64,000 bases of DNA from Mobula hypostoma. Taxonomy: Eukaryota. Positions 10,733 to 62,397 of the stretch are shown in pieces. Within the stretch, counting starts at the first letter, position 1, and each line of letters starts with the position of its first letter. The notes beneath the pieces are model-generated. The model saw only the letters and a program-made list of their open reading frames with translations, searched no databases and was not told where the DNA came from. The stretch is from assembly GCF_963921235.1 (NCBI RefSeq), contig NC_086105.1, positions 98,332,001 to 98,396,000 on the forward strand, read 5' to 3'. The translations under genes were made by a program, and so were the position numbers.

Positions 10733-12957
10733 GGAGAGGGATGGGAACAGACAAGTTAGGAAAGTGTTTAATCAGAGTAAGGGGAAATATGAGGCTATCA
10801 GGCAGGAACTTGGAAGCATAAATTGGAAACAGATGTTCTAAGGGAAATATACGGAAGAAATGTGGCAAATGTTCAGGGGATATTTGCGTGGGGTTCTGCA
10901 TAGGTACGTTCCAATGAGACAGGGAAAGGATGGTAAGCTACAGGAACCGTGGCGTACAAAGTCTGTTGTAAATCTAGTCAAGAAGAAAAGAAGAGTTTAC
11001 GAAAGGCTCAAAAAATTAGGTAATGATAGAGATCCAGAAGATTACAAGGCTAGCAGGAAGGAGCTTAAGAATGAAATTAAGAGAGTCAAAAGGGACCATG
11101 AGAAGGCCTTGGCAGACAGGATTAAAGAAACCCCCAAGGCATTCTAGAAGTATGTGAACAGCAAAAGGATAAGACGTGAGAGAATAGGACCAATCAGTGT
11201 GGCAGTGGAAAAGTGTGTGGAACCGGAGGAGATAGCAGAGGTACTTAATGAATACTTTGCTTCAGTATTCACTATGGAAAAGGATCTTGGCAGTTGTAGG
11301 GATGACTTACAGCAGACTGAAAAGCTTCAGCATGTAGATATTGAGGAAGAGGATGTTCTGGAGCTTTTGGAAAGCATCAGGGTGGATAAGTCACCTGGAC
11401 CGGACGCGCTGTACCCCAGACTACTGTGGGAGGTGAGGGAGGAGATTGCTGAGCCTCTGGCGATGATCTTTGCATCATCAATGGGGATGGGAGAGGTTCC
11501 GGAGGATTGGAGGGTTGCGGATGTTGTTCCCTTATTCAAGAAAGAGAGTAGAGGTAGCCCAGGAAATTATAGACCAGTGAGTCTTACTTCAGTGGTTGGT
11601 AAGTTGATGGAGAAGATCCTGAGAGGCAGGATTTATGAACATTTGGAGAGGCATAATGTGATTAGGAATAGTCAGCATGGCTTTGTCAAAGGCAGGTAAT
11701 GCCTTACGAGGCTGATTGAATATTTTGAGGATGTGACTGAACACATTGGTGAAGGTAGAGCAGTAGATGTAATGTACATGGATTTCAGCAAGGCATTTGA
11801 TAAGGTACCCCATGCAAGGCTTATTGAGAAAGTAAGGAGGCATGGGATCCAAGGGGACATCGCTTTGTGGATCCAGAACTGGCTTGCCCACAGAAGGCAA
11901 AGAGTGGTTGTAGATGGGTCATATTCTGCATGGAGGTTGATGACCAGTGGTGTGCCTCAGGGGTCTGTTCTGGGATCCCAACTCTTCGAGATTTTTATAA
12001 ATGACCTGGATGAGGAAGTGGAGGGATGTGTTAGTAAATTTGCTGATGATACAAAGGTTGGGAGTGTTGTGAATAGTGTGGAGGGCTGTCAGAGGTTACA
12101 ACGGGACATTGATAGAATGCAGAACTGGGCTGAGAAGTGGCAGATGGAGTTCAACCCAGATAAGTGTGAGGTGGTTCATTTTGGTAGGTCAAGTATAATG
12201 GCAGAATACAGTATTAATGGTAAGGCTCTTGGCAGTGCGGAGGATCAGAAGGATCTTGGGGTCCAAGTCCATAGGACACTCAAAGCTGCTGCGCAGGTTG
12301 ACTCTGTGGTTAAGAAGGAGTACGGTGCATTGGCCTTCATCAATTGTGGGATTGAGTTTAAGAGCTGAGAGGTAATGTTGCAGCGATATAGGACCCTGGT
12401 CAAACCCCGCTTGGAGTACTCTGCTCAGTTATGGTCGCCTCAACAAGAAGGATATGGAAACCATAGAAACTGTGTAGAGGAGATTTACAAGGAGGTTGCC
12501 TGGATTTGGGGAGCATGCCTTATGAGAATAGGTTGAGTGAACTTGGTCTTTTCTCCTTGGAGTGATGGAGGATGAGAGGTGACCTGATAGTGATGTACAA
12601 GATGATGAGAGGCATTGATTGTGTGGATAGTCAGAGGCTTTTTCCCAGGGCTGAAATGGCTAGCATGAGAGGGCACACTTTTAAGGTGCTTGGAAGTACG
12701 CACAGAGATGGCAGGGGTAAGTTTTTTACACAGGGAGTGGTGAGAGCATGGAATGGGCTGCCGGTGACGGTGGTGAAGGTGGAAATGATAGGGTCTTTTA
12801 AGAGACTTCTGGATAGGTACATGGAGCTTAGAAGAATGGAGGGCTATGGGTAACCGTAGGTAATTTCTAAGTTAAGAACAGGTTCGGCACAGCTTTGTGG
12901 GCTGAAGGGCCTGTATTGTGCTGTAGATTTTCTATGTTTCTATGTTTCTATGTTTTT
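10733..12957 (+). mobile_element. 5'-truncated CR1 LINE, relatively young (ORF2 RT with a few stops and frameshifts)
   Basis: KSPGPD, WRVADVVPLFKK, NYRPVSLTS, YMDFSKAFDKVPH, GVPQGSVLG and KFADDTK motifs; (TTTCTATG)n tail at ~12928-12956. Confidence 0.95.
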
Positions 12958-15300: not shown

Positions 15301-15742
15301 TTAATCAGAGAATATCATGAACCCTTCAGACTGGCAAACTGCGGTGGGTAGCGACAGGCCTCGACACACCTGAGCATTATTTATTTGAGTTTATTAGGAT
15401 CGTTTAATGACTCCTTTTATCAATCAGCCGACACTGTGTTATTTGTGATGCTCATTATGTGAATACCGTTTCCTTATTCTTCTCATTCTTAAGTGATTAG
15501 TTTTTGATTTTGACCTTCACACATTTCCTGTGTTTTATGTTCTGTTTAAGGATATTCTGGACCAGTGATCATTGCTGAGTCCTGGATTCGAGTTCTGTGT
15601 GCTCAAGTACAGAGTAAGCGAACTGTTTAGTTTGATTATCCCTTGTATCATTCTTCAAATAAATCTTCTTTGTTAATTTCTACTACCGAATCCTGAGTTT
15701 ACTCCACACCCGGAAGATTGCTGGAGCAGGACTCAGCCAATC

Positions 15743-17072
15743 ATGGACCCGGCGGAGATGGATCAACTTCACACAGCATTGGTTTGTCAAGGTCAGGCAA
15801 CTGACTGGCTTGAGCAGCTTCTCCAGGAGATACCTGCATCATTGCAGAAGGACTCTGGTTTCGAGCACTCGCCTGTGTGTCTTGCTACCTGTCGCCAGAA
15901 TGGCCAGCTGATCCCGGAGCAGTGCAATGGGGAGCCTGAGTCTTCTTAAACCAGTGCTCCCTAGTCTTCAAATTGCAACCCACAATGTTCCTCTTGGACA
16001 GGAGTAAGGTGGCACATATAATTCCCTCCCCTCAACAGGGCACTTTCGTGGGCAACAACTTTATTGGAGAAGGACGCTCCAGATATAAATCTATCTCTAA
16101 GAATGATGAGGATATTTCATCCCACCGGGGGCTCAGAGGCAGCTGGAGGACTCCTCCGGCTACATCAGGGAGCACGATCCGTGGCCGACTGTTGCGTTCA
16201 ATTCCGTACCCTGGTTTTAGAAAACGGGTGGAACAATGAGGCTTTGGTTGCTCTGTTTGGACGGGGATTAAATCATCAGTTTAAGGACGCTCTTGCGACC
16301 AGGGACCAGGTGGAGGGTTTGGAAGAACTTATGGACATGGCCCTAAGAATCAATGACTGTAATTTTGAAAGAAGGAGGGAGAGACGTGGTGAGTTCACCC
16401 GGACGGCCGGTTGTCAGGACTACCCAACGCCTACCCAAGTTCCTCGGTCTGATAACCAACACAGTCACCTCCAGCAGAACCATGGAACTCAGAAGAAGCC
16501 GGGTCTCCCCAGTGGAGCGAGAGGGACATGCGAAGCAGAGGTGTTGCTTATACTGAGGTAAGACTTCCAAGTCAGCTGTTCCAAGTTGCCGGGAAAACTT
16601 CCAGAACTGTCCAGAGGGGAGAACTGTAATGGTCTCAAGTCCCTCTCCTGTTTTACTAGCCCTATTATCTTGGGGGAGACATCAACATCTGTGAGAGCTT
16701 TGGTGGACTCTGACTCGGTGGGAAATTTTTTGGACATTGGACTGCCAGAGAGATACCAAATTCCTAAGGTACGCTTTGACCAGCCTATCACTGCTGGGCT
16801 CTCAACTCAGGTCATCAGTTGAGTTGTTTCCTGACTGCTGAAGACTGGACTTGAACTCAATGGAGCTGTCTAGAGTGCATTCAGAGTATTCAGATTTGTT
16901 GGAGGTCTTCAGCAAGAGGAGAGTCATTACACTGACCCCATATAGGGACAACAATTGCACCATCAATTTACAACCTGGCACACGTCCTCCCCGGGAAGGC
17001 CTTATACCTTGTCCACTCCCGAGAGGCAAGCTATGGAGGAATATTCCATTAGTTTTGGCAGGGATCCTTTAG
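15743..17072 (+). pseudogene. Degenerate gag, protease and start of RT of the Sushi-like element
   Basis: MDPAE; LLRLHQGARSVADCCVQFRTL..GWNNEALVALFGRGLN..KDALA (Retrotrans_gag); ALVDSDSVGNFLD (aspartic protease); EYSDLLEVFSK...CTINLQPGTRPPR (pre-RT). Confidence 0.85.
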
Positions 17073-17084
17073 TTTACTTTCTTA

Positions 17085-17630
17085 TAGCCGGGGGTGGTAG
17101 TGGGAGCTTGTCCAATGGTATGTGCCTCAAATAGCCTCTGACAACCAAGTCCAGCTCCTGGCCTTCATGTGTGGCTTAGCCACGAAGCCCGACAGAACCA
17201 TTTCTACTGACAGGAGAAGGGGCAAAGACGAGCTCCTGGCACTTTAAAACCAGTCGCTTTGGGTAGATGGAGCTCGTTAGCTATGGTTGGCAGCTCATCC
17301 AGGAGGAGGAAAACTCTGATCTCGAACCTCCGCTGCCTTGCGGCTATATCCACTCATGGAGAAGGCTTTGGGAGTAAACTCCGAGGGAAAAATCCGGAGC
17401 TAGAGTCCCTAAGGCAGTCCTACATTGAGTTCAACACTCACTGGCAACTCCTGTGACACTGCTGGTACCAAATTGTATCAGTCTCTAATGTTCCTTTAGG
17501 TTCATCAGATGCATGATGAGAGGGAGCCTGCTACATGGGCAACAGTTTGTTCCACTGTACTGCCCTGGCTTGGGTACCTAGACAGCTAGGATGCAATATC
17601 CATGGTCAACCCGGACCAACGGAGGCCCTC
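17085..17630 (+). mobile_element. Non-coding interspersed repeat, probably RTE-related, between the RT remnant and the USP35 copy
   Basis: Distinct GC-richer block that resembles RTE-type 5' UTR repeats; family assigned from recognition only. Confidence 0.45.
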
Positions 17631-17744
17631 ACCTCTCTGTCTTTGCCCTGTGAGTCCATCAGGTAACTGTTTGATCTCAACTTGTAACTTTCCATAGACG
17701 GCATTTAAAAGTTGAATGTTTGTTGTATAGGAACCTTCAACTTC

Positions 17745-19565
17745 AGTCAAGTACATTCATGCAAGACATATTTAAAAGCAGAAAAAGATCCTCTCAACAG
17801 TAAGCAATGAATTGTCATGTTTGAGTTCTTTGCGTAGAATGATACACAATTCCAAAAGGATGTGGATGTATTTGATAGGCCATCAAAAGTATTAGCCACT
17901 GTAGTCCAGTATGTATGTGCCCTCAGAAATCATGGATGGGGTTATTCAAAACCTGATGAATGATGATTACATGATGGATATAGGGATGATGACTGCTTAG
18001 ACCAATATGATCGATTGGCTTTCATGGCCATTAGCCAATAACATAGATAGGTGGATTATTGGCTTACTGAAAGGTTAGACTGCTGTGAAAAAGTTCAGCA
18101 TTTTGATCCAAGTCACACTTTCAAAAATGGAACAGGTGTTCTCAAGGCTCCTTTCCCAGTTGTAAGAGCAGCAGCACCTGCTGTGCTGAAATACATGCTC
18201 TTAAGTTTCCAACATTCATCGGAAGCATTCCATGTGCTTGTTCCTCACATTCCCACATTAATGACATCACTCTCTAAAGAAGAGTCCAACTCTGCTACAA
18301 GCTGTCATCAACTGTCTGAATTGGTACACTGCATGATCTTCTAATTTTCGGGGTTCCCTGACTGATATGAACCTGTCACACGAGCACTAAAGGATTTTCT
18401 AATTTGAAATGAGGGAAAACTGTAGCAGCTGCTCAATGGCAATGTCTGCATGTCACAAGGAAGTACATTGGATGCTTTGTACTTTGTGCAAAGTCGGAGA
18501 GAGGAAAGACAGAACTGGCAGATCGTGGCAAAACCTGCTACAGGAATAGTTTCATTCAAGTCCTTTTCATGGCTTCTGACTTCAGGCATGCTGTTATGCT
18601 ACTCAAGGCAAGTGATTCACAGTCATTAATGTTGAAACTTCAATGGTTATTTCCTTTCCTGGAATATAGCCAGAGATCTGCCATCTCTCCCAGTAGCTTC
18701 TTGAAAGCTTCATCTCCTCCATGGTTTAATCAAGGGGAGCAACAGGACCATTAAGGTATCTATTGGACAAGCTACGTGAAGAAGAGAATACTAGTAAAGG
18801 AATTTCTCGTGAACAGAGACACTCAGGCAGTGAAACTTCTACAGAAGGTCAAGATCCTGAGAAAGCACTAATAGAAAGAATATTTGGTGGGAAGATGGGG
18901 ACTAGGATTCTTTGTCTTTGTTATCGCAATGTTTCCTTCCAAAAGGAAGCTTTTACAGACCTATCCCTGGCACTTCCACCACCTAACAAGGTTCTACAAA
19001 GGTGTGATCATTCAAGTGACCCTAGTATTTCAGTGAAGATAACTAGTGCACTTAATTTAGCATCACAAGTTGAGCAACAGCACGTGATTGCCAAGTCTCC
19101 AAGTAACCAGACAAAAAAAATCAGTGAGAGTGGTACCATTTGGAACAATTGGTACCCATGGAAAAGCAAAAGAGGGGACTGCAGCATCTAGAATTGCCAA
19201 AGAATGATTTTGTAGTAGCCTCTAGGGAGGAAACATGTAACTCAGCATATTGGTGATCAGTTTCTGACCTTATTCACTACTTTCTTTCACCAGAAATGCT
19301 ATCAGATGATAACAGATATTATTGCAATAGATGTACCTCATTACAGGAAGCAGAAAAGTGGTAAAATTAACTGGAAATCTGCATGATTTTATCTTGACGT
19401 TATTACGATTCTCCTTTGATTTTGCAACTATGAAATGCAGAAGTTTTCTGGATAACCTATCTGTCCCTTTAGTCATTAAACCACCCATTAGGATTAATTC
19501 AAAGGGTGAACAGAAAAATTGCAGCAGAAATCAATGATGGAGACTGGGAGAATGGAAACCTTTTT
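17745..19565 (+). pseudogene. USP35: Processed (intronless) pseudogene of ubiquitin-specific protease USP35, truncated at both ends
   Basis: Collinear peptides MIDWLSWPLANNIDRWIIGLLKG, VLKYMLLSFQHSSEAFHVLVPHIP, ELVHCMIF*FSGFPD*YEPV, GKTCYRNSFIQVLFMASDFRH (Cys box, C codon 18536-18538), LQWLFPFLEYSQRSAISP, IFGGKMGTRILCLCY..KEAFTDLSLALPPP, YFLSPEML..NRYYC, FILTLLRFSFD. Diagnostic residues fit USP35 better than its paralog USP38. Stops and frameshifts present; His box absent. Confidence 0.9.
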
Positions 19566-20111
19566 TAAAGGAAAGATGTCTCAGGATATTCTAGGCCCTC
19601 AATTAATCATGGACTTTCATAACAGATCGCCCTGGGCTGTCAGTGCTGGTTGGGGTCGGGGGATGTGGGAGTGGTCCTATCATGAACTCTTTGGAGACCA
19701 GCTAGGTGCATTGGGACCTGATGCACCTGAACATCATTTTTTAGAGCTTATTAGTGTTGTTTAATGACTACTTTTATCCTTAAGCTATCACTGTGTTTTT
19801 CGTGATGCTCGTTATGTGAATACGGTTCTCTTACGCTTCTCATTATTGTGATTAGATTTGATTTCAACCCCCGTGTCTTTCCTGTGTTTTATGTTCTATT
19901 TCAGGTTATTCTGGACCAGCCATCATCACTGAGTCCTGGATTCAAGTTCTGAGTGAACTACCATTCCTAGTGCACAAGTCCCAACTATGTGAGCTCTTAG
20001 TTTGACTATTCCTTGTATTATTCTCGGAATAGATCTTCATTGTTATTTTCTACTATCAAGTCCTGAGTTTACTCTGCACCCAGGTCTGCTCGTCTGAAGA
20101 CTGTTACAATG

Positions 20112-20510
20112 AAAGTGCAGTGCAGGCAGACAATAAGGCGCAAGGCGATGACGAGGTAGATTGCGAGATCAAGTGTCCATTCTATCGTGCCAGAGGACCA
20201 TTCATTTGTCTTATAACAGCAGGGTTGAAGCTGCTGTTAAGCCGAGTGGTACATGCTTTCAGGCTCGTATCTTCTGCCTGATGGAAGGGGGGATGAGGAG
20301 AGAACGTCTGATTATGTTGGCTGCTTAACCGAGGCAGCAATATGTGGTGTCAAAGTTCATGTATGGAAGGCTGGTTTCTGTAAAGTACTTAGCTGTGCCC
20401 ACATACCTCTGAAGTTTCTTGTGGTCACAGGCAGAACAGTTGCCAAACCAAGCCATGGTGCATCCAGATAGGATGCTTTCTGTGGTGCTGCAATAAAAAC
20501 TAGTGATGAG
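20112..20510 (-). mobile_element. Rex1/Babar LINE 3' end
   Basis: TSFYCSTTESILSGCTMAWFGNCSACDHKKLQR motif. Confidence 0.8.
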
Positions 20511-26968: not shown

Positions 26969-29900
26969 TCTTGTTAAATGCAGTCAGCTCAGGCGTGTTC
27001 TTCGGTTGAACATCCAGTATCTGGTCTGCATAATGTCTCTATGTCTGATCTCCAACATCCACTGTTTACAACAGTGGTCCAGTTCTTGTAGCTATCCTAT
27101 TGGGTGTCTACTTATCTTCTCGGTCATTGTGCACAAAGATTTCCTGTCCAATCTCAAAGCTCCTCGTTGGTTTACCTGGCAACTGGCTGAACTGTTTATT
27201 CTGCACTGTCCTCCATAGATTGGGTTTCAGGAGGTCTATGAAAAGCATTGCAGGTGTTTGATTTGTCATGGCATGAACAGAGTTCCGATACACAAAGAGG
27301 AAGGTGTCCACCTTATGCTGCAGAGGAATGTCCTCCTTGCCTATCACTTTAATGGACTTGGTAAAGGTTTGGATAAACCTTTCAGATAACCCATCCATTG
27401 CTGGATGGTGAGAAGCTAAGGTGAAATATCTGATGCTATTTTTCGTCATGAATAGTCTGAGCTCCACTGACATGTATTGTGGTCCGTTGTCTCTCATAAT
27501 TTTGTCTGGTAAGCCATTTATGGAGAAGATAACCCGTCAAGAGAGGAAACAGTCTTTTCAGTATAATCTCCGGCCACTTCAAATGAGCATCCACATCAAT
27601 CAGAAGGTTGGAGTCCATGAATGGCCCAGCAAAGTCAATATGCACTCTTTGCCATGGTGAAGGCAGCCACTCACACAGGTGTAACGGAGTCTGTGGGGGT
27701 GAATTATGAACTTTGTGGCATCTTGAATAGCTTTTGGTCAAGTCTTCAATCTGTCTATTTATTCCCAGCCACCACGCGTAGCTCAAGGCGAGACCCTTCA
27801 TCTTGACTGTACCCAGGTGTCCTTCATGCAGATTCTCTAACACTCTTGTGCGCAGTTTGGCGGGAACCACAATACGAGATCCACTCATCAGTGTTCTTTG
27901 ACATACAGACAGTTGGTTTTGAACTCTGGAATCATAGGATAACCATGAGCTGGTGATCTATGATGAAGTCATAGACTTTTGACAATGTCGGGTTATTCCT
28001 CATTTCCCTTTGTATTTTGGAATTTTTTCTGAACTGGTCCTCTGATGTGGAGTGGAACACTTCTGCTGGGTCACAGTATGAAGACTTTTTTTCTTCAGTT
28101 GCCAACAGTGGAAGACATGTCAAGCAATCAGCATTGCTGTGTTGTTTGGTACTCTTGAACTCTATGTCTTAAGAGTGGGCTCCTAGGAAAAGTGCCCAAC
28201 GTTGTAATCGAGCAGCAGTCATCACTGGGATTTCTTTCCTGGGATTGAGAATGGACACAAGGGGCTGGTGATCTGTCACTGGTGTAAACTTTTGCCCATA
28301 AGGGTAATGGTGTATCTTCTTTATTCTCTATACTAGACTAAGGGTCTCTCGGCCGAACTGTGCGTATTTGCACTTTAATGGAATTGGGCGTTCAGATCCA
28401 TCTTTCATAATGTGTGACAAAACAGCTCCAATGCCATAAGGGGACACATCACATGCCAGTCTGATGGACAGCGATGGGTCGTAATGGGTGAGCAGTTCTT
28501 CTGATGTTATTAGTCTCTTTCTTTCCTTGAATGCTTTTTCACATCTTTCTGACCATTCCCACTTTGCTCCTGTCTACAATAGTATGTCCAATGGGTGCAG
28601 CACTGTCGCAAGATCTGAAAGAAACCTGTGGTAGTAGTTTACAAGGCCCAAGTATGACCTGAGTTGTGACACATTTTCCAGTTTGGGTGCCTGTAACACT
28701 GCTTCAGTCTTCTCTTGGGACTTAAGTAAGCCATGCTCGTCAATGACATGTCCACAATATGAGATTTCATTCTTGAAAAACTCACACTTCTCTCTCTTTG
28801 TATGCAATCCATATTCACTCAGCCTGGTAAGGTTCGGAGGAGCTCTTCATCATTTTTGTCAGTCACAATGATGTCCTCAAGGTAACATTGTGTTCCTGAG
28901 ATATCTTGAAATGCTTGGTCCTTTGCTCCACCAAATTGCTGGAGCTGACGCGATGCCAAAGACGAGACGATTATACTGGAAACAGTTCCTTGTGAGTGTG
29001 GATTGTGAGGAACTTCCTGCTTGACTCCTCAATCTCATTTGCAGATAGGCTTGTGACAAGTTAATCTTTCAAAACCTCTCCCCGCCTGCCAAAGATGCAA
29101 AAATGTATTCTATCCATGGCAGGGGATTCTGCACAATACGCTGCACCAGGTTGATACTCACTTTGAAATCCCGAAATATACGAACAGCTCCGACCTTCCC
29201 TTTCTTGATCACTAGGACAATGGGTGTGGCCCAATCACTCCACTCAACCTTGGAGAGAATTCCAGATGCCTCCAAGCTCAACAGTTCAGCATCCACTTTA
29301 GGATGTAGTGCATAAGGCACTGGACGCACTTTATGGAATCTTGGTGTGCTGTTTCATTCAGATCAATTCTGGCCTTCATGCCTTTGAGCTTACCAATCCC
29401 CTTCTCAAACACCTTCTCATTAGCATTAAGCAGCTGTGACAGTCTCTGATTAGTGCTACCATTTGGGCAGCAGTTGCCTTTTGATGACACATTGAGAGCT
29501 TTGATTTTGGGCTAATGTAGTTGGATTTTTCTCAACATTCCCACCTGAAAAGTATTAGCTTTTCTACACGCAAAGCTCTAACTGCTGTGTTTGGCCTCCA
29601 TGTGTCACATTCACTTTCAGCTTTTCTTTGGGAGACACTTTTTCACCTGTGCAAGTCTTCAGGATCACTGATGCCTTTTCTAATGGTAGCTTAGAAAACA
29701 GTCTGTTGTCGTTAGTCTCTGAAATTACAGACGAAGCTGACCCTGTATCCAGCTCCATTTTCAGATTTACACCAGACATATCTGTTGTGAACCAGGTGAT
29801 TTTGCAATTTACTTCAGTAGCATTATGCAGTTCTAGACTTGACAGCTCACCTTTGTCAGACTCTGTGCTAACTGATTCAGTTTCACATTCAGTCACTTTA

Positions 29901-31074
29901 CGCATTTGTTTTGTTTTCTGTTTGAATCTTTTCACTCTGTGTGTGTTTTTCTCTTTGGTTGTGCTTTTTGTCTGGCTTGCACACTCTATCTATGTGGCCT
30001 TATCTGTGGCACTTTCTGCAAACTTTTTCTTTGAATCAACCATCATTTGCATCATGGGAGGATTTGGCACATCGATAACATTTTTAGCTTTTTTGCACCA
30101 TTCAGGGATATTTTGTGTATTTGGCATTCTAAACTCTTTTTCTGTAGTTCTGCCACATCCTTTGCTTCAGTCTCTAATGATATTGCAATGGTCAATGTCC
30201 GTTCTAAGGTTAAGTTTCTTTCTGACAATAGCCTCTTTTGAATGCTTTGACTATGCATGCCACCTACAAGCCTGTCCCTTAATACATCAGAAAGTCCATC
30301 CCTAAAGTCACAGCATTGGGAAAGTTTGCACAGTTCTGCAATGAATTCAGAAATGCTTTCATCCTTTGACTGGTTCCTTTTAGGAAATCTAAAATGCTCA
30401 GCTATTATTAGCGGTTTGGGGCTCAAGGGAATTTGCAAAATTGCAACAATTTCATCAAATGCCTTGCTTGCTGGCTTTTCAGGAGTTACTAAGTTGCATA
30501 AGAGACTGTACGTTCTACCACCCATTAAGCTAAAAAGTGTAGAAACTTTCTTTAGTTCATCCACATTGTTAGCATTACAATACAGTTTAAGCCTCTCGAT
30601 ATACAATTCCCAGTCCTCACTAGGACTATCAAATTCATCAACTTTCCTGTCTAAGGCCATTGTCATGTTATTTTCACTTTAGCTTTGCTAGTTGTGCGTC
30701 CCTCACTGTGTACCGTGCACCGTTACTCACATGTCCTTTTCTAGCATCCATGACAGCCTTCTCCATATTGGTTCACTCTTTCCTCTCACTGTCTCCCTCC
30801 CTTCCTCCAAATTCTGTTGTCTCATAACTGTTGGTGCAGCTGACATTGAGGTTCATACTTGTCACCAATTTGTTGTGTCTGTACAGCTACATATCAAATA
30901 AAGAAAGCCACATACTCAGAGGTGAAGTTAACGTGCATATTCACTTTGCAGGGAGAGCAACAAATTAATACACAAGAATAAGTTATCAGTCAATAATTGG
31001 TGCGAAGGAGAGTCATTGGGGTAAAAGAAATAGATCTGTACATTACAGTGTTCAGCGATCAGCTCAGTATTATG

Positions 31075-49780: not shown

Positions 49781-50129
49781 NNNNNNNNNNNNNNNNNNNN
49801 NNNNNNNNNNNNNNNNNNNNNNNNNNNNNNNNNNNNNNNNNNNNNNNNNNNNNNNNNNNNNNNNNNNNNNNNNNNNNNNNNNNNNNNNNNNNNNNNNNNN
49901 NNNNNNNNNNNNNNNNNNNNNNNNNNNNNNNNNNNNNNNNNNNNNNNNNNNNNNNNNNNNNNNNNNNNNNNNNNNNNNNNNNNNNNNNNNNNNNNNNNNN
50001 NNNNNNNNNNNNNNNNNNNNNNNNNNNNNNNNNNNNNNNNNNNNNNNNNNNNNNNNNNNNNNNNNNNNNNNNNNNNNNNNNNNNNNNNNNNNNNNNNNNN
50101 NNNNNNNNNNNNNNNNNNNNNNNNNNNNN
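49781..50129. other. Assembly gap (N run)
   Basis: Continuous run of N. Confidence 1.
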
Positions 50130-53510: not shown

Positions 53511-56500
53511 TGTAGATTTTCACAAATAAAATGAAGTGAAGCATTTTATATTTAATGAAATCTGTAACACATTTTATTGAAATTCAAAACCTAAACACAA
53601 AAGTAGGCTAAAAATCCTTACATAAGAATGTCATCACGTCAGACCAGCCCCTTAAAGTGACATCCCAATTCAATGCTGGTGGTTGTGAGTTATGTACGTT
53701 TCTCCCAATTATGTTACCCTACACAGGCCTCCCCCCCCCCCCCCACACCCAGAATTCACTAAAACTGGCATTGTGAGCCAGTCTGGAGCTAGGACCAACC
53801 GCCTGGCTCAGGTCCTGTTCAGATCCTATTTTTTACGGGGGGAGGAACAGCAGGTTTCTCTGGCTCATCCAGAGGTGTGTTGTCACGCTTATGGTCATGT
53901 TGTGATGCCAGTAGCATGGCAGTGGAATCCTCCAAATCTTGCTGGGGCAGTTTAAGGCGATCTACTGAAATACGTTCAGGTTTGCCCCTCTTATCTATGA
54001 TAAAAGTCTTTTCTCCCTATTCCAAAACGTGGAACAGACCATCATAACGGGGCCTAGGGAGATGTTAGTGTGCATCATGAAGTATGAAAACAAACAAGGT
54101 GGAATATAGGTCAACAGGTATCCAGTGATGCTGTACACCATGAAGGGGGGGTCAGAACAGGTGAAAAGGAATTGAATTTACTGGGAGTGGAATGCTGTTA
54201 AGAGGCCAACCAGCCGGTCGTGGCAACAGAAATGAAATCTCCTGGCACTCGTAATGGCTGCCTGTATACCAACTCAGCCCGCAGACTTCTGTAGGTCCCC
54301 TTTCGGAACTGTTCTGAGCCCCAACAGGACCCATGGGTCTGCGGCCATCATTGATGCTAGAGGGATGACCTCTGGCCACCTGGTGATATGGTCCACCATG
54401 GTAAGAAAGTGTGGAAACTGCGGGGGGGGGGGGTAACAGAACCAACAAGGTCCACATTGACATGGTCAAACAGTCTCTCAGGGACCTCAAGATGTGCCAA
54501 TGGTGCCTGATCATGACGGTTAATTTATGCCCGCTGGCACTCCACACAGCTGCAGTCCAATCACACGCATCCTTTCCGAAGCCGTGCCACACAAACTTTA
54601 GTGAAACCAGTTTCTCTGAGGCCTTGCAGCCCAGATACGAGAGGCCATGTATGGAGTCGAAAACAGTCCATCGCAAGTTTGCAGGCACAATGGTGCAAGG
54701 GCGACCAGTTGAGACATTGCACAGGAGAGAAAACTCAACTTCCCAGAGCTTAATGTCAGCCAACGGCAGGCCCGTGACTGGTGTTCGGTAAGCCTGGACC
54801 TCTGGGCCAGTAGCTCGGTCAGCCGCCACGCCAGCAGAGTCAGCACCTACCATGCCCAAAAGCTCCTGTAGTTTTTTTGTAGTGTGGGGGTGGTGGGAAA
54901 TCCATAATAGGGGCTACTTTTGATGGGAGGGCTTTCATACCATCTGCTGAGATGCAATGGCCAAGAAAGTCAATGGCTGACGACCCAAACTGACACTTAG
55001 CAGGACTAATAATCAACCCGTGTTGGCTTAAGGGCTCGAAGAGTGTGCAGAGATGAGATACGAGTTTGGAGTTGTTCACACTGGCCACAAGTATGTCCTC
55101 CAGTTAAGCAAAAAGAAAATTGAAGTCCATCAGCCGTTGGAAATGCATCTGTGCTGCATTTTCAGTCCCAACACCATGCACAGAAACTCAAAAAGGACAA
55201 ACGGGGATATCACAGCCATTTAGTACAGATGGTAGCCCCTAACTAGGTCAACTTTGTGAAAAAATTAACTTCTTGGCTAAATGTGCCTAAAGGTCTTGGA
55301 TATGTGGGACAGGGAAATGATCAGAGGTCATTCGCTTGTTCAAGCATTGGAAATCACCACATGGGTGGCAACCACCATCGGATTTAGGGACCATCTGGAG
55401 GGATGAAGCCCAGGGGCTATTCAACCGGCGTACAATGCCAAGTCTTTCCATGTTGGCAAACTCAGTCTTCACAGCTGCCAGCTTTCTGGGTCCAGTCTAC
55501 ATGCACAGGCATGGACTGGTGTGCCAGTTGTAGAAATGTAGTGCTCAACCCTGTGTCTTGTGACTGTAGTGGAGAATGTGGGCTTGGTGAAGTTTGGAAA
55601 TTCACCCAGCAGTCGAGTAAACTCACATACAGTGTTGCAAGCCCTTGACAGAGTCATTGTGGGGAACTTAATGGGGGAGCAGGGTACCAACCCAAAGTCT
55701 TTGACATCCACAAGCGGGCAGTTCTTAAGATTGACAAACAGTCCTTGAGCACACAGGAAAGCTGCTCCGAGCGGACGTCTAGCCACTTTAGCCAGGACAA
55801 AGTCCCATGTGTAACGTCGTCCACCGAAGCAGATTATCACCCATTGTTTCACGTAAGTCTGGATCCTGCTGCCGTTGGCGGCCTCCAGCAAGGTTTTGCC
55901 AGTCTTTGCCTTTTCATCAATAGGCGATGCTGGCAGCACATTCACTTGAGCACCGATGTCACACAAGAAGCGTTGCCCTGAAAGGGTGGCTGTAATGAAC
56001 AGCAGACGACCCTCTGATGTCCCGATGCACTGGCCCTGACGAAGCTGCAAGATGGTCGGCACTTCCTAGCGTTCCTACCAAAGCAAGCGTGGTAAAAACA
56101 CTGTCCCGTTGTCTGTTTCACAGCCGTGGGCCACTTACGTTGGGAGCCTTGCTGAGGTTCAGAAAGGAGGAGGAATGATGCATGGCTGCCCGGCTGAGTG
56201 TGAACTATCAGCCATCTTAGCAAGCTCCCTATAGTCCTTCAGGGGTGCATTAGTGTGGGCTATGCAAACTCAATCAGGCATTTTAAATAAAGCAAGGATG
56301 GTGATTTCCCAGGAGAGACAGCATGTGGTCCATTAGCTCTGACCATCGCCGAGACCGGGTAAGCAGAGCAACTGTTTGGTGCACTCAGACATCAATAGTC
56401 CAAAAGTTGGTAAAAGGTGAGTTATCAGCGATCAGTATTTATCGTGTTCAGACAGGTGTTAAGCAGACTCACTACTCTGGCGGCCATGGAACTGCTGAGT

Positions 56501-59500
56501 GATGTTACCACCTGGTAAAATTTGGTGTTGTCGGTGGTGATTTCTGGCCTCAGCTTGTACAAACCAAGCGACGGCATTTTGCTCCCAAAACTCCAGCAGT
56601 TTCAAAGCGACTGTATGGTTGACGTGCTTAATAACTCTAGAATCAACCTAGAGTATTGGGGTCACCAATGTAAGTTTTTGCAAATAAAAGTGAAACAACC
56701 CAGTTTCTATGGCTGCTTAAGTCTAGAGAAAACAACCTCCAGCCTCGCCAAACTTTAGAGATTCAGGCACATTGAATCACACCCCAAACCTCGGTTTATA
56801 TGGATGCTGTGTCATTTGCTACCCTGTTACAAATTAATGCCACAAAATAACGGACAGCACACTGCATACAATTAAAGGAATTGTGTTTATGAATCTTAAC
56901 TAAAGGGTTAGTGAAGAATAACAAAAAGAAAAGGGCCCATTCTAATTAAACAGTCAAATGTTCATAAGTTGGAGCTCATCTTGAACTTCTCTGTCACTAA
57001 CGCGCTGGGCCCTCGGTCAACGTGAAAGCACACACCACCTTCCGAACGTCGCCTGCAATCCATCTTGAACAAACGGGTCTCCCACCGGATCGTATGCTAT
57101 GACCAGCTCTCCCTAGTGTCTCCTCTCTTCATCTCCTCTCGAACAAAACCTCCAAGGCCAACCTTATTGTCCTTCACCAAGAATAACCTCCCGCTAATTG
57201 GATGGCACGCATTCCACATCATCCCTTATCTTCAACAATAACCCAAACAGGCTGAAAGCAGAACAGCAGCTCTTACAGTGCCGCTAAATGAAATACGTAC
57301 AGCGTAACCGTAAAGATGTGATCCAGGGCATTACACTCTCCCCCCACCCCCCACCCCCCACCTCAAGTAGTCATGTCCTCATAACTTTGAAATAATTTGT
57401 CATCCTGTCATTAATAACACCATTTTCAAAGGAATTTTGTGATGTCAGAACCTCCAATTCATTTGTAAAGGGTAGTGACAAATCTCACTAGGGGGATAGT
57501 CGCAACCCTCTGTTCCCGGGGTGCTACACAGGCCAGCCTATCTCTTCCAGACCTCTGTAGCCCATCGTCTATACCTTCAGTTTCAGACACTCCTTGGGAT
57601 ACTTCTGGTCTACATGACGAGGGTTCCCCCTGTCTATTGTGCCTTCCGGCAACTCAGGCCTCTCTGCCACTGGGCTGAGCTCTACTTCATTCCCAGTTAC
57701 GTCAGAGCCCAGCCCCCCGCATGGTCCAGCTGCAAAGCGGCCTGTCCACAGATAGCTCCCCGATTTCACCTGCCCCAGAGATTGGGTATCTCTTCCTCAT
57801 TCAGTGGGGAGTTAGCAAAAGGCAGCATATACCACACCCCCATTTCCTCACCCTCTGAGTCCGTATCCTATTTAGGGGCGAGGGCCAGTCTAATCTTTCC
57901 TGCTGCTGGTTCTTCAGTCTCCCCACATCTCCGCAGAGTCCTCTTACTGGGTGTAGGGTCCAGGTCGGGCTCTGGGTCAATCCGCACCTCTTGTCCCAGA
58001 GGTAGAACGTGGTTCTGATGGAGAATCTTGACAGACCCATTCCCATCCTCTGGTTTCATGTGGAAAACTGGTACGTTTGGCATCTGACTCTCCACTACAC
58101 AGGGTGTAGCGGCCCTGTGGTCAGCCAACTTCTGCTTCCCAGGTAGCCTCAAATTCCTTATGAGAACTTTGTCTTCAGGGATGAATTGGGAGAACCTCAC
58201 CTTTTGATCATACCTCCTCTTATTTCCTTGATCCTGCTTGGCAGCCAAGACCTCAGCTAATTCATTTCAGCTCTCTTCTCATATCAGACACATACTTCAG
58301 ATGTCTTCTGTTTATCAGCCTCACACATGGGTATCTGATAATACCCTCTCCTCAAGTCCAGCACACTGAACCACGTCGCACCATTCAGGCAGGCCAGCGC
58401 ATCCTCGATTCTTGGGACTGTATGCCGGTCAGGGACTGTACACCTGTTCAGAGTCTGATAGTCCACACATATCTGTACCTTCCCATTCTTCTTCCTGGCC
58501 ACTACTATTGGAGATGTGCAAGGGTTTCTGGATTCAGTGAAGATCCCAGCTTCCTTCAACTTCTGCAGATGCTGCCGAGCATCCTTCACCTCTGCCGGTG
58601 CCAGTCACCGTGACCTTTCTCTGAACGGGGTGTCCTCTGTCACCTGGATGGTGTGGTGAGTGCTCTTGGAGCAACCCACATCAAACTCGCCAGTAGAAAG
58701 ACATCTTCCAGCTTCAACATCTTCTCTAGCAACCTCTTCTTCCAACCTCTAGGTACCGGGGAGTCCCCAAAGTTAAATGACTCGGCAGTCATCTTTCCTC
58801 TTTTCAGAGAGAGTTTCCCCCCGGCTCATCTCACAGGGACACTAGACATTACCGTCACCAGGAAGAGGTGCGCCATTGCCATCCCCCGCCTGAGGGTAAT
58901 CTCCTGCTCCGAAGTGTTCCTGACACTCACTGTCTTTTCTCGTCATCAGGGCACTGCCCCTCATCCAGCAACTGAGAGGTCTGTTCTGCCCAAGTCTCAT
59001 ACTCCTCTTCCCCTTTAGGGGTGGGCTTCGTTCCCCAGAACAGGCTGAGCCTACAATAGCTGGGACTTTGAAACTGGGTATTTTGCCATTTATTCACCAG
59101 GGAGGTAAGGGCTACCAACTCAGAATGTTCAGACCTCGCTGGAGGATTCAATAGACCCTCTACATCAGTCCACTCCTCCTCCTCACTCTGCAGAAATGAG
59201 AGCAATTTGTCTTTAAAGTCTCTGCCCCCAGCTACGGGAAATTCGGTTTCCGATTCTGCACGCTCGCCTTCACTCCCCTCCTCCTGGAAAGAATGGACAG
59301 CCCACGGCCCCCTCCCATCTCCTGGGACCCCAGTAGTACCAGGCAGTTCCACTGCCCTTACGTCAGCGCTAGTCTGAACTAGAACAAAGCCTTTACCCGC
59401 CATTTTATCAAACCTCCACTCCACCTCTGCAGCATCCATAACCACATATCGTAATCACTTTATTGGACAATAGTTTAGCACAGATTTAAACACACAATCC

Positions 59501-60495: not shown

Positions 60496-61281
60496 TAGAA
60501 ACATAGAAACATAGAAGATAGGTGCAGGAGTAGGCCATTCGGCCCTTCGAGCCTGCACCGCCATTTATTATGATCATGGCTGATCATCCAACTCAGAACC
60601 CCGCCCCAGCCTTCCCTCCATACCCCCTGACCCCTGTAGCCACAAGGGCCATATCTAACTCCCTCTTAAACATAGCCAATGAACTGGCCTCAACAGTTTC
60701 CTGTGGCAGAGAATTCCACAGATTCACCACTCTCTGTGTGAAGAAGTTTTTCCTAATCTCGGTCCTAAAAGGCTTCCCCTCTATCCTCAAACTGTGACCC
60801 CTCGTTCTGGACTTCCCCAACATCGGGAACAATCTTCCTGCATCTAGCCTGTCCAATCCCTTTAGGATCTTATACGTTTCAATCAGATCCCCCCTCAATC
60901 TTCTAAATTCCAACGAGTACAAGCCCAGTTCATCCAGTCTTTCTTCATATGAAAGTCCTGCCATCCCAGGAATCAATCTGGTGAACCTTCTTTGTACTCC
61001 CTCTATGGCAAAGATGTCTTTCCTCAGATTAGGGGACCAAAACTGCACACAATACTCCAGGTGTGGTCTCACCAAGGCCTTGTACAACTGCAGTAGTACC
61101 TCCCTGCTCCTGCACTCGATTCCTCTCGCTATAAATGCCAGCATACCATTCGCCTTTTTCACCGCCTGCTGTACCTGCATGCCCACTTTCAATGACTGGT
61201 GTATAATGACACCCAGGTCTCGTTGCACCTCCCCTTTTCCTAATCGGCCACCATTCAGATAATAATCTGTTTTCCTGATTT
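60496..61281 (-). mobile_element. Young 5'-truncated CR1 LINE inserted in the RT of element A
   Basis: Intact C-terminal reading frame [46 protein letters not shown]; (TTTCTATG)n tail. Confidence 0.93.
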
Positions 61282-62397
61282 GGCTGAGTCCCGTGTTTAG
61301 ATGGAGATGGAAGAAGAGTCCAGAGTGTTTTGCACCATAAACATTCTCAAAGGGCTTTATCACTATAGCAGGTCTGGCCAAAATATGGTTCTGTGCTCCA
61401 CCCCTTGAGCTCATTCTACAGATCAGGATGAAATGGCAATGGACAAAGCAGTGTGAGGTGGCCCTCAAAAAAATAAAGGAAATGGTGATGACAGACTCTG
61501 TACTCACAAATTATGATCAACATCATTCATGCCTTGCCATATGGTACAGAAGCAGTCATGTCACATGTTATGAGTGATAGAAGTCAACATCCCATAGCCT
61601 TTGCATCACATTCCCTTACCACTGCACAGAAACATTATGCACAGATTGACAGAGAGGCCTTGAATCTGGTTTGAGGTGTAAAACGCTTCATCTAGTACTT
61701 GTATGGGAGAGAGCTTACACTAATCATGGAATTGCTAATGGATTTTTCCATTTACCCTTAGAAAAGGAAATAGCTGAAAAATTGACAAAAGAGGACACGC
61801 CTCTTGATGTATTCTCCCTAATGCAAATTGAAAGTCTCTCTGTTACAGCAGAGAAGGTCCAAAGGGAAACCAGAAAAGACCCCACACACCCTCAGGTCTA
61901 CATGACAACCCAAAGTGGCTGGAATGTGCAGCAGAAACTCCAGTCCCCCCCCCCCCACTTTTACTTGTGCTGAGATGAACTTGCCCTTGGCAGAGGTTGC
62001 CTTATGTGGGGATTGAAAGTTGTTGTTCATCCAGTCTGAGAGATGAAGTGCTGGAGGATCTATATGCCGGTCACCTACGCGTGGTCAAAATGGGAGCGCA
62101 GGCTCAGAGTTCTGTTTGGTGGCCTGGTAGATCAGTAAATCGAGCAGCTTGGCCTACACTTTTCAGGATGTTGACATGTCCAGAGAAAGCCATCCAGAGC
62201 TGCTAGAACCACTTCCAGCAGTCCCAGAGTCAACTCTGACAACCACTAGGGAGGAGGTCCCAGAAGCTGAGATATATACACTGTAGATAAGTTGAGGTGC
62301 ATTCTATATTGAGTTGGAGTTTATAGCTAAGCAGGAAAGTGTGCTGTGTATTTAATATATATTAGTAATGTTTGCATAATATTGAAAATATATGATC

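Follow-up and report, generated by a model that had tools for sequence, protein, structure and literature searches.

A decayed chromovirus-type LTR element with spliced USP35 in place of pol, and its probable spread as a non-autonomous family in Mobula hypostoma

We analysed a 64,000-nucleotide stretch of the Mobula hypostoma genome (contig NC_086105.1, here C36, positions 98,332,001 to 98,396,000, hereafter the window), in which positions 15313-20108 are occupied by a long terminal repeat (LTR) retrotransposon that carries part of the deubiquitinase gene USP35. With a probability of about 0.9, the element is a decayed member of a chromovirus-type LTR family in which a spliced USP35 mRNA replaced the reverse transcriptase (RT), RNase H and integrase region, likely through two template switches, and for whose spread to at least 11 sites intact relatives likely supplied the enzymes. 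An initial annotation, made from the letters of the window alone, had proposed an LTR-mediated capture followed by amplification as a non-autonomous family, and both proposals are borne out by the results below.

Results

Structure of the element

The element is bounded by two direct repeats that form an LTR pair (15313-15725 and 19678-20108; 79.2% identity over 399 columns, Kimura two-parameter (K2P) distance 0.25). All features given here lie on the forward strand, apart from one later insertion to which no strand is assigned. Based on the LTR-LTR alignment the TG...CA ends of the family are decayed at both termini of the 5' LTR, and the 3' LTR ends in TTACA. The primer-binding site (PBS, 15727-15737) is an exact 11-nt complement of a self-primer site within the LTR (15574-15584), the two pair in the folded stretch, and from this complementarity priming would be of the self-priming Tf1/sushi type. 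The same PBS register is repeated over 6-9 nt in four of six other copies that were checked.

Downstream lies gag (15743-16600), interrupted by stops and frameshifts and identified by alignment, by Pfam (Retrotrans_gag, E 4.6e-4, below the curated cut-off) and in the PDB, where PEG10 is the top match (E 0.0019). A slippery-type site, GGGAAAAC, is found at 16591, and a GG(G)AAAAC-type site occupies the expected gag/pol position in five of ten copies. The protease remnant (16601-16821) was recognised by blastn to relatives and by its motif, read by eye as ALVDSDSVGN in the window copy and ALVDSGAAEN in the sibling on C40; it has a copy-specific internal deletion at about 16795-16807. Among the window copy's own short frames neither the protease nor the chromodomain gave a Pfam match. 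The start of the RT region follows (16822-17040) and ends at the left switch point, a shared AGGA at 17037-17040.

The USP35 part begins with the first portion of 5' untranslated region (UTR) exon 1 (17041-17082), aligned to the host exon at C21:128920369-128920282. It is then interrupted by an unrelated high-copy repeat (17083-17636, boundaries approximate) of about 520 bp, with 12,299 genome-wide candidates at 83-85% identity and no match in Rfam. This repeat, seen already in the initial annotation, has no counterpart in the siblings on C40 and C45 and is a later insertion. The end of exon 1 fused to exon 2 occupies 17637-17737, and the spliced USP35 coding sequence 17743-19572, in which residues of about 16-60 are joined to residues 228-805 (Hypanus numbering) at an alternative splice junction (17865/17866). 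The USP part matches Usp38-like_N (E 2e-23) and UCH (E 3e-7) in Pfam, and the catalytic Cys codon is at 18536-18538. With ten stops and eight frameshifting indels in this coding sequence, together with the LTR divergence, the element is decayed as was first described.

The right switch point (19567-19572) corresponds to a GGAGGA in the host gene and in pol, mutated in the window copy. It is followed, in frame with USP35, by the last residues of the integrase chromodomain and a spacer (19573-19657), and then by a polypurine tract recognised from its sequence (19658-19677). The RT start and the chromodomain tail can both be aligned to pol-bearing relatives. As the LTRs, the PBS and the polypurine tract are kept, the cis signals are intact in kind. 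Domain matches, the LTR alignment and the pol of the relatives thus agree with the order of parts first read from the sequence.

Parent gene and captured transcript

A genome search with window positions 17740-19560 produced 36 candidates. All were scored, giving 41 matches, and only C21:128.880-128.920 Mb agrees exon by exon. This is the parent USP35 locus. Its large exon has 94% identity to the best protein match, a USP35-like protein of Hypanus sabinus, and almost all of the 120 protein matches listed for that exon carry the name USP35. Over the captured span the parent has 11 exons and ten introns, all GT-AG. Exon junctions 3-10 of the ten are fused in the window copy, and five of its siblings are intronless across all ten, which agrees with the proposed intronless copy of a multi-exonic gene and disposes of an intronless parent.

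The initial annotation had the copy cut inside the coding sequence at both ends. This holds at the 3' side, where the capture stops at residue 805, and fails at the 5' side, where it begins in 5' UTR exon 1; the ATG is kept in siblings, and the window copy has lost it through a subsequent deletion of about 100 nt. Cys454 is included in the captured piece, so that the Cys box reported earlier is present, and His831, Asn866 and the C-terminal domain are excluded. USP35 activity requires a Cys-His-Asp/Asn triad and a C-terminal dimerisation domain (PMC13193824, accessible text), and the Cys box alone is therefore insufficient for an enzyme. The captured piece is predicted to be unable to encode an active deubiquitinase.

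The same internal splice donor was used in all ten copies that span the site, with 501 nt (167 codons), single-copy in the genome, skipped in frame. In the host gene this donor is a GT at C21:128913957 in the first coding exon, and its use gives an in-frame isoform without residues 61-227 of the N-terminal domain. The exact isoform was seen in none of the 13 annotated relatives that were aligned.

These data also bear on whether a long interspersed nuclear element (LINE) made a processed pseudogene that was inserted into an existing LTR element, the composite being trimmed and copied later. LINEs are abundant here, and a 2026 Vertebrate Genomes Project (VGP) preprint ties, in its accessible part, vertebrate retrocopy counts to non-LTR content. 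However, none of the 23 loci contains a poly(A), the last exon or the 3' UTR, nor the skipped stretch or the rest of the large exon; no poly(A) is found at the 3' junction of the USP35 piece, in line with the first description, and no target-site duplication (TSD) surrounds the insert. Moreover, pol is deleted exactly between two shared words, and the truncation is on the 3' side with the 5' end retained, opposite to what LINEs produce. We consider a LINE origin very improbable.

Pol-bearing relatives and switch points

Relatives with the same LTR and gag have interiors that give RVT_1, RT_RNaseH, Integrase_H2C2, SH3_Tf2-1 and Chromo matches, the chromodomain (PF00385) reaching E 7.9e-9 in one of them (L064). 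All 12 rows of USP35 carriers have 0 nt of the pol interior, as compared to at least 500 nt in 14 of 21 other rows. The part of pol replaced by the USP35 piece measures about 2.5-3 kb.

Both junctions coincide with short words common to the host gene and pol. At the right junction the switch lies at GGAGGA in all eight carriers aligned. At the left junction AGGA is directly visible in four of six insertions aligned, the exceptions being C59, where this position was hit by a later insertion, and C1b, which has lost the UTR. The chance of overlaps this long at random switch points is 0.019 for 4 nt and 0.0019 for 6 nt. The junctions shared between loci and the microhomology, both suggested as checks at the outset, support the capture and the later amplification.

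On the left side the 210-nt UTR contains 8, 4 and 3 stops in the three frames and the ATG is one base off the pol frame, so that no Gag-USP35 protein is expected. The chimeric gag-USP35 element foreseen in the initial annotation exists as DNA and not as protein, and a Gag-Pol-USP35 fusion protein is ruled out on the same grounds. In one copy (L046:1330-1500; C1, about 52.2514 Mb, minus strand) a later deletion took the USP35 5' UTR and placed the pol start in frame with the USP35 ATG; this copy is broken downstream.

Insertion sites

Ten dispersed loci carry the insert: two each on C36, C1 and C9, and one each on C45, C40, C59 and C22. In addition, C73 (8.47-9.11 Mb, L071-L084) holds 12 pieces within 0.65 Mb whose flanks are 87-96% identical over kilobases, and the eight pieces of sufficient length to enter the tree group as one clade with a support of 92. 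Because of the shared flanks and the single clade the C73 pieces count as one insertion, which gives eleven overall. At C96:8.574 Mb (L050:5104-5181) a 75-nt USP35 scrap stands beside LTR and gag remnants; it is probably a twelfth, heavily deleted insertion and was left uncounted.

Spread of a single insertion by segmental duplication, and not by retrotransposition, holds for the C73 cluster. For the dispersed copies it was rejected: nine of them terminate at the LTR end (the rearranged C9a was left out of this examination), no pair of their 400-nt 3' flanks is alike, and their 5-mers differ. As an account of the family as a whole it is the least probable of the alternatives that we considered. 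Three carriers have both ends readable, with GAGAA/ATGAA (15308-15312 and 20109-20113 in the window copy, three of five letters), TAGAC/TAGGC (four of five) and CCACA/CCATG (three of five), each weak alone with a chance of about 10%, 2% and 10%, respectively. The TSD first noted in the window copy therefore stands as a degenerate match that has little weight on its own.

For the 3' tail of the family 38 matches were found and 30 loci were fetched, of which 27 have the tail. USP35 lies upstream in seven of them and pol remnants or internal deletions in the other 20, a rough share, since the RT query gave 399 candidates and the best 40 were scored. Cargo-free internal deletions within the same family include L095, L114 and L121. 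No second captured gene was found upstream of the 27 chromodomain tails, and three unexplained cases contained other repeats where they could be matched.

Decay and selection

All 11 independent copies are broken, with 2-10 stops and 6-17 frameshifting indels each, and the longest USP35-like open stretch is 193 amino acids. A naive dN/dS (omega) of 0.64 was discarded as an artefact of the mutation spectrum. After correction for the observed spectrum omega was 0.86 over all sites (p 0.005). Allowing for trinucleotide context gave 0.90 (p 0.04), restriction to non-CpG-prone sites 0.88 (p 0.08), and singletons alone 0.92 (p 0.24-0.39). Terminal-branch values after spectrum correction were 0.86-0.92, and five off-frame controls gave 0.93-1.23. 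The copies decay at or near neutrality, although there may have been a brief early constraint on the cargo. Two stops common to most copies were tried as founder defects and rejected; they fall in CpG-type codons and are present in five of seven and four of eight copies. When the commonest codons of the copies were compared with the host over 596 codons, 31 synonymous and 30 amino-acid differences were found, and of the latter 17 arose in the host line, ten in the copies and three could be assigned to neither.

We considered it unlikely that the cargo itself aided the spread, either through a catalytically dead decoy product read in frame from the USP35 start to the chromodomain tail, or through host-like camouflage against silencing by PIWI-interacting RNAs. 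The presence of USP35 in seven of the 27 tail-bearing copies would fit such an advantage, as would the in-frame isoform that reads in frame into the element tail, the all-site omega of 0.86-0.90 (p 0.005-0.04) and the C1:52.25 Mb copy with pol in frame to the USP35 ATG. Against this, omega on singletons is not significant, and about ten amino-acid changes are common to most copies where the host is ancestral. The USP35 ATG also stands behind gag, protease and the stop-rich UTR, and there is no remaining acceptor through which it could be reached. Internal deletions free of cargo occur in the family as well, and losing pol is by itself known to promote spread (Tan et al., 2016, PMC5131818, accessible text). 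Given that the cargo has no frame to gag-pol, encodes no active deubiquitinase by its residues and is decayed in every copy, it was most likely a passenger.

Age and occurrence in other organisms

The copy tree is near star-like, with differences of 16-23% between copies and 12-16% between copies and parent. The latter range was set beside the LTR pair divergence, as had been suggested, which is K2P 0.18-0.28 in carriers and non-carriers alike. At 30 residues that the host and Hypanus share against all deeper relatives, the copies are derived at 20 and ancestral at nine, with one tie, and they retain four residues lost in the host and Hypanus. From this split the capture would fall on the stingray stem, likely after the split of the sawfish and before that of Hypanus.

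The stretch was found in 20 of 24 listed sequencing runs, from eight organisms. Four runs of four other organisms were compared, leaving out the small-share organisms C and G. In two of them contigs run across the 5' flank and LTR, in three across the USP35-tail-LTR junction, and in two across the window copy's own protease deletion. The difference from the window copy is 7-10%, well below that seen between paralogous copies. Only 29 letters bridge the 3' flank, which was not counted. The same insertion is present in these four organisms. Looking up similar stretches in other genomes gave no result, and among the public runs no RNA run was listed with the stretch, which gives no evidence either way on expression.

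Remainder of the window

Elsewhere the window consists of transposon debris, at 27436-30678 (minus strand), 54152-59454 (minus strand), 11148-12368 and 60593-61510, with other Gypsy-like elements (Integrase_H2C2, PNMA-like gag) and, by eye, LINE-like RT fragments. No host genes were recognised among the window's open reading frames (ORFs) of at least 170 amino acids, and ARAGORN and Rfam gave no match anywhere in it. A run of 349 N lies outside the element at 49781-50129.

Discussion

The multi-exon parent, the fused exon junctions, the element-gene junctions shared between copies with different flanks, the microhomology, the replacement of pol and the lack of poly(A) together support an LTR-mediated capture. 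A USP35 mRNA was most likely co-packaged with element RNA in a particle of the family. During minus-strand synthesis the reverse transcriptase would have left the chromodomain coding sequence at GGAGGA, continued on USP35 and rejoined the element at AGGA. Such a hybrid would then have integrated with both LTRs, all cis signals and gag-protease kept, and its shared junctions and different flanks suggest that it was copied again in trans during a single burst of the family. Carriers and non-carriers are indistinguishable in gag-protease, with distances of 0.23-0.25, and this likeness fits one burst.

Several observations weigh against the proposed capture and spread. The carriers form no clade in gag-protease, with one diagnostic column of 1481 as compared to a mean of 2.0 for shuffled labels; a single origin is therefore argued from the shared junctions and the isoform and not from this tree. 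No intact helper was found and every relative seen is broken. TSDs are degenerate, and none was seen in two of four USP35-free copies that were checked. Across the right junction USP35 and the chromodomain tail share one frame, which is expected in one of three cases by chance. Finally, the all-site omega is slightly below 1 (0.86, 0.90), and an off-frame control deviates equally the other way (1.15-1.23).

The mechanism, including re-mobilisation, is already published. Tan et al. (2016; Genome Res 26:1663, PMC5131818) describe, in the accessible text, ORF replacement, microsimilarity, lack of poly(A) and secondary retroposition in LTR retrocopies of animals. The USP35 family resembles those retrocopies in that a partial, 3'-truncated mRNA stands in for the internal ORFs between both LTRs, with microsimilarity at both switches. 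The copy is intronless, and at the gene piece it lacks both poly(A) and TSD. Like Drosophila CG17604_r and CG10212_r it was apparently re-mobilised as a non-autonomous element; several insertions have the same structure with their own flanks and their own, degenerate TSDs, and pol-bearing partners of the same age share LTR and gag, all now broken. The cases of Tan et al. are young and have few insertion sites, whereas the USP35 family is old, is inserted at 11 sites or more and retains an alternative isoform. It is found in a cartilaginous fish, a group absent from the species named in the accessible text of that study. The USP35 family is a further instance of the mechanism and no report of a USP35-carrying element was found in the literature searched, most subscription papers lying outside it.

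Two other systems are known to us through the accessible text of Tan et al. (PMC5131818). Maize Bs1 combines fragments of three genes, is present in one to five copies and has been argued to be protein-coding, in contrast to the one gene and the more numerous, uniformly broken copies of the USP35 family. FAM8A1, taken up by a human endogenous retrovirus (Jamain, 2001), is likewise a vertebrate host mRNA in an LTR element, with microsimilarity and now a pseudogene, but its carrier is a retrovirus whereas that of USP35 is a Ty3/gypsy chromovirus. The family shares with Tf1/sushi chromoviruses a chromodomain integrase, a putative -1 frameshift-type gag-pol junction, a PEG10-like gag and a PBS of the self-priming type, the latter being described as a hallmark of these elements (PMC6317226; bioRxiv 10.1101/2022.12.06.519325; accessible parts). 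Unlike them, the USP35 carrier is without RT, RNase H and integrase. The nearest PDB match for the RT is Ty3 RT (E 9e-21), and the sushi-like placement is by these features. The comparison with PEG10/RTL genes made in the initial annotation applies to ancestry only; no domestication was found. A gene of that kind would have an intact frame under purifying selection at a fixed locus, and all 11 copies are broken.

SUDS3 is another possible case of carriage by an LTR element. It is among the top retrocopy parents of cartilaginous fishes in the accessible part of the 2026 VGP preprint. The Sds3 profile (PF08598) gave 119 matches among the best 150 of 331 candidates, and the sampled SUDS3 copies adjoin gag-protease-like frames. 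One of them (L125, C76:11.187 Mb) has 1.4-3 kb at about 90% in common with the other nine sampled loci (L124-L133), and it holds gag-like, DTGS protease-like and SUDS3 sequence in a single frame with few stops, an in-frame fusion unlike the USP35 carrier. Membership of the SUDS3 carriers in the USP35 family was rejected, with no blastn or tblastx match at any of the ten loci; to judge from its sequence the SUDS3 carrier is a younger, unrelated Gypsy-like element. Since the preprint both draws a link to non-LTR content and lists SUDS3, a wider pattern of LTR carriage is the more interesting question. In its full form it would mean that unrelated Gypsy lineages of rays repeatedly swapped pol for host regulatory mRNAs (USP35 and, partly checked, SUDS3), that the cargo gave an edge as decoy or camouflage, and that the top retrocopy families of cartilaginous fishes are driven by LTR carriage and not by the activity of LINEs or by selection on the host. 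We regard this as unlikely.

No new host function is shown for the captured USP35, and the capture has preserved in the genome an ancient germ-line splice isoform of the gene. Gene transduction by a non-retroviral LTR element is documented here with a completeness unusual for a vertebrate, from the parent and the helper family to both switch points, about a dozen insertions and the orthologous copies. The family also indicates that retrocopy counts in cartilaginous fishes may be inflated by one capture followed by re-mobilisation, as a pipeline would score about 20 USP35 pseudogenes from a single event.

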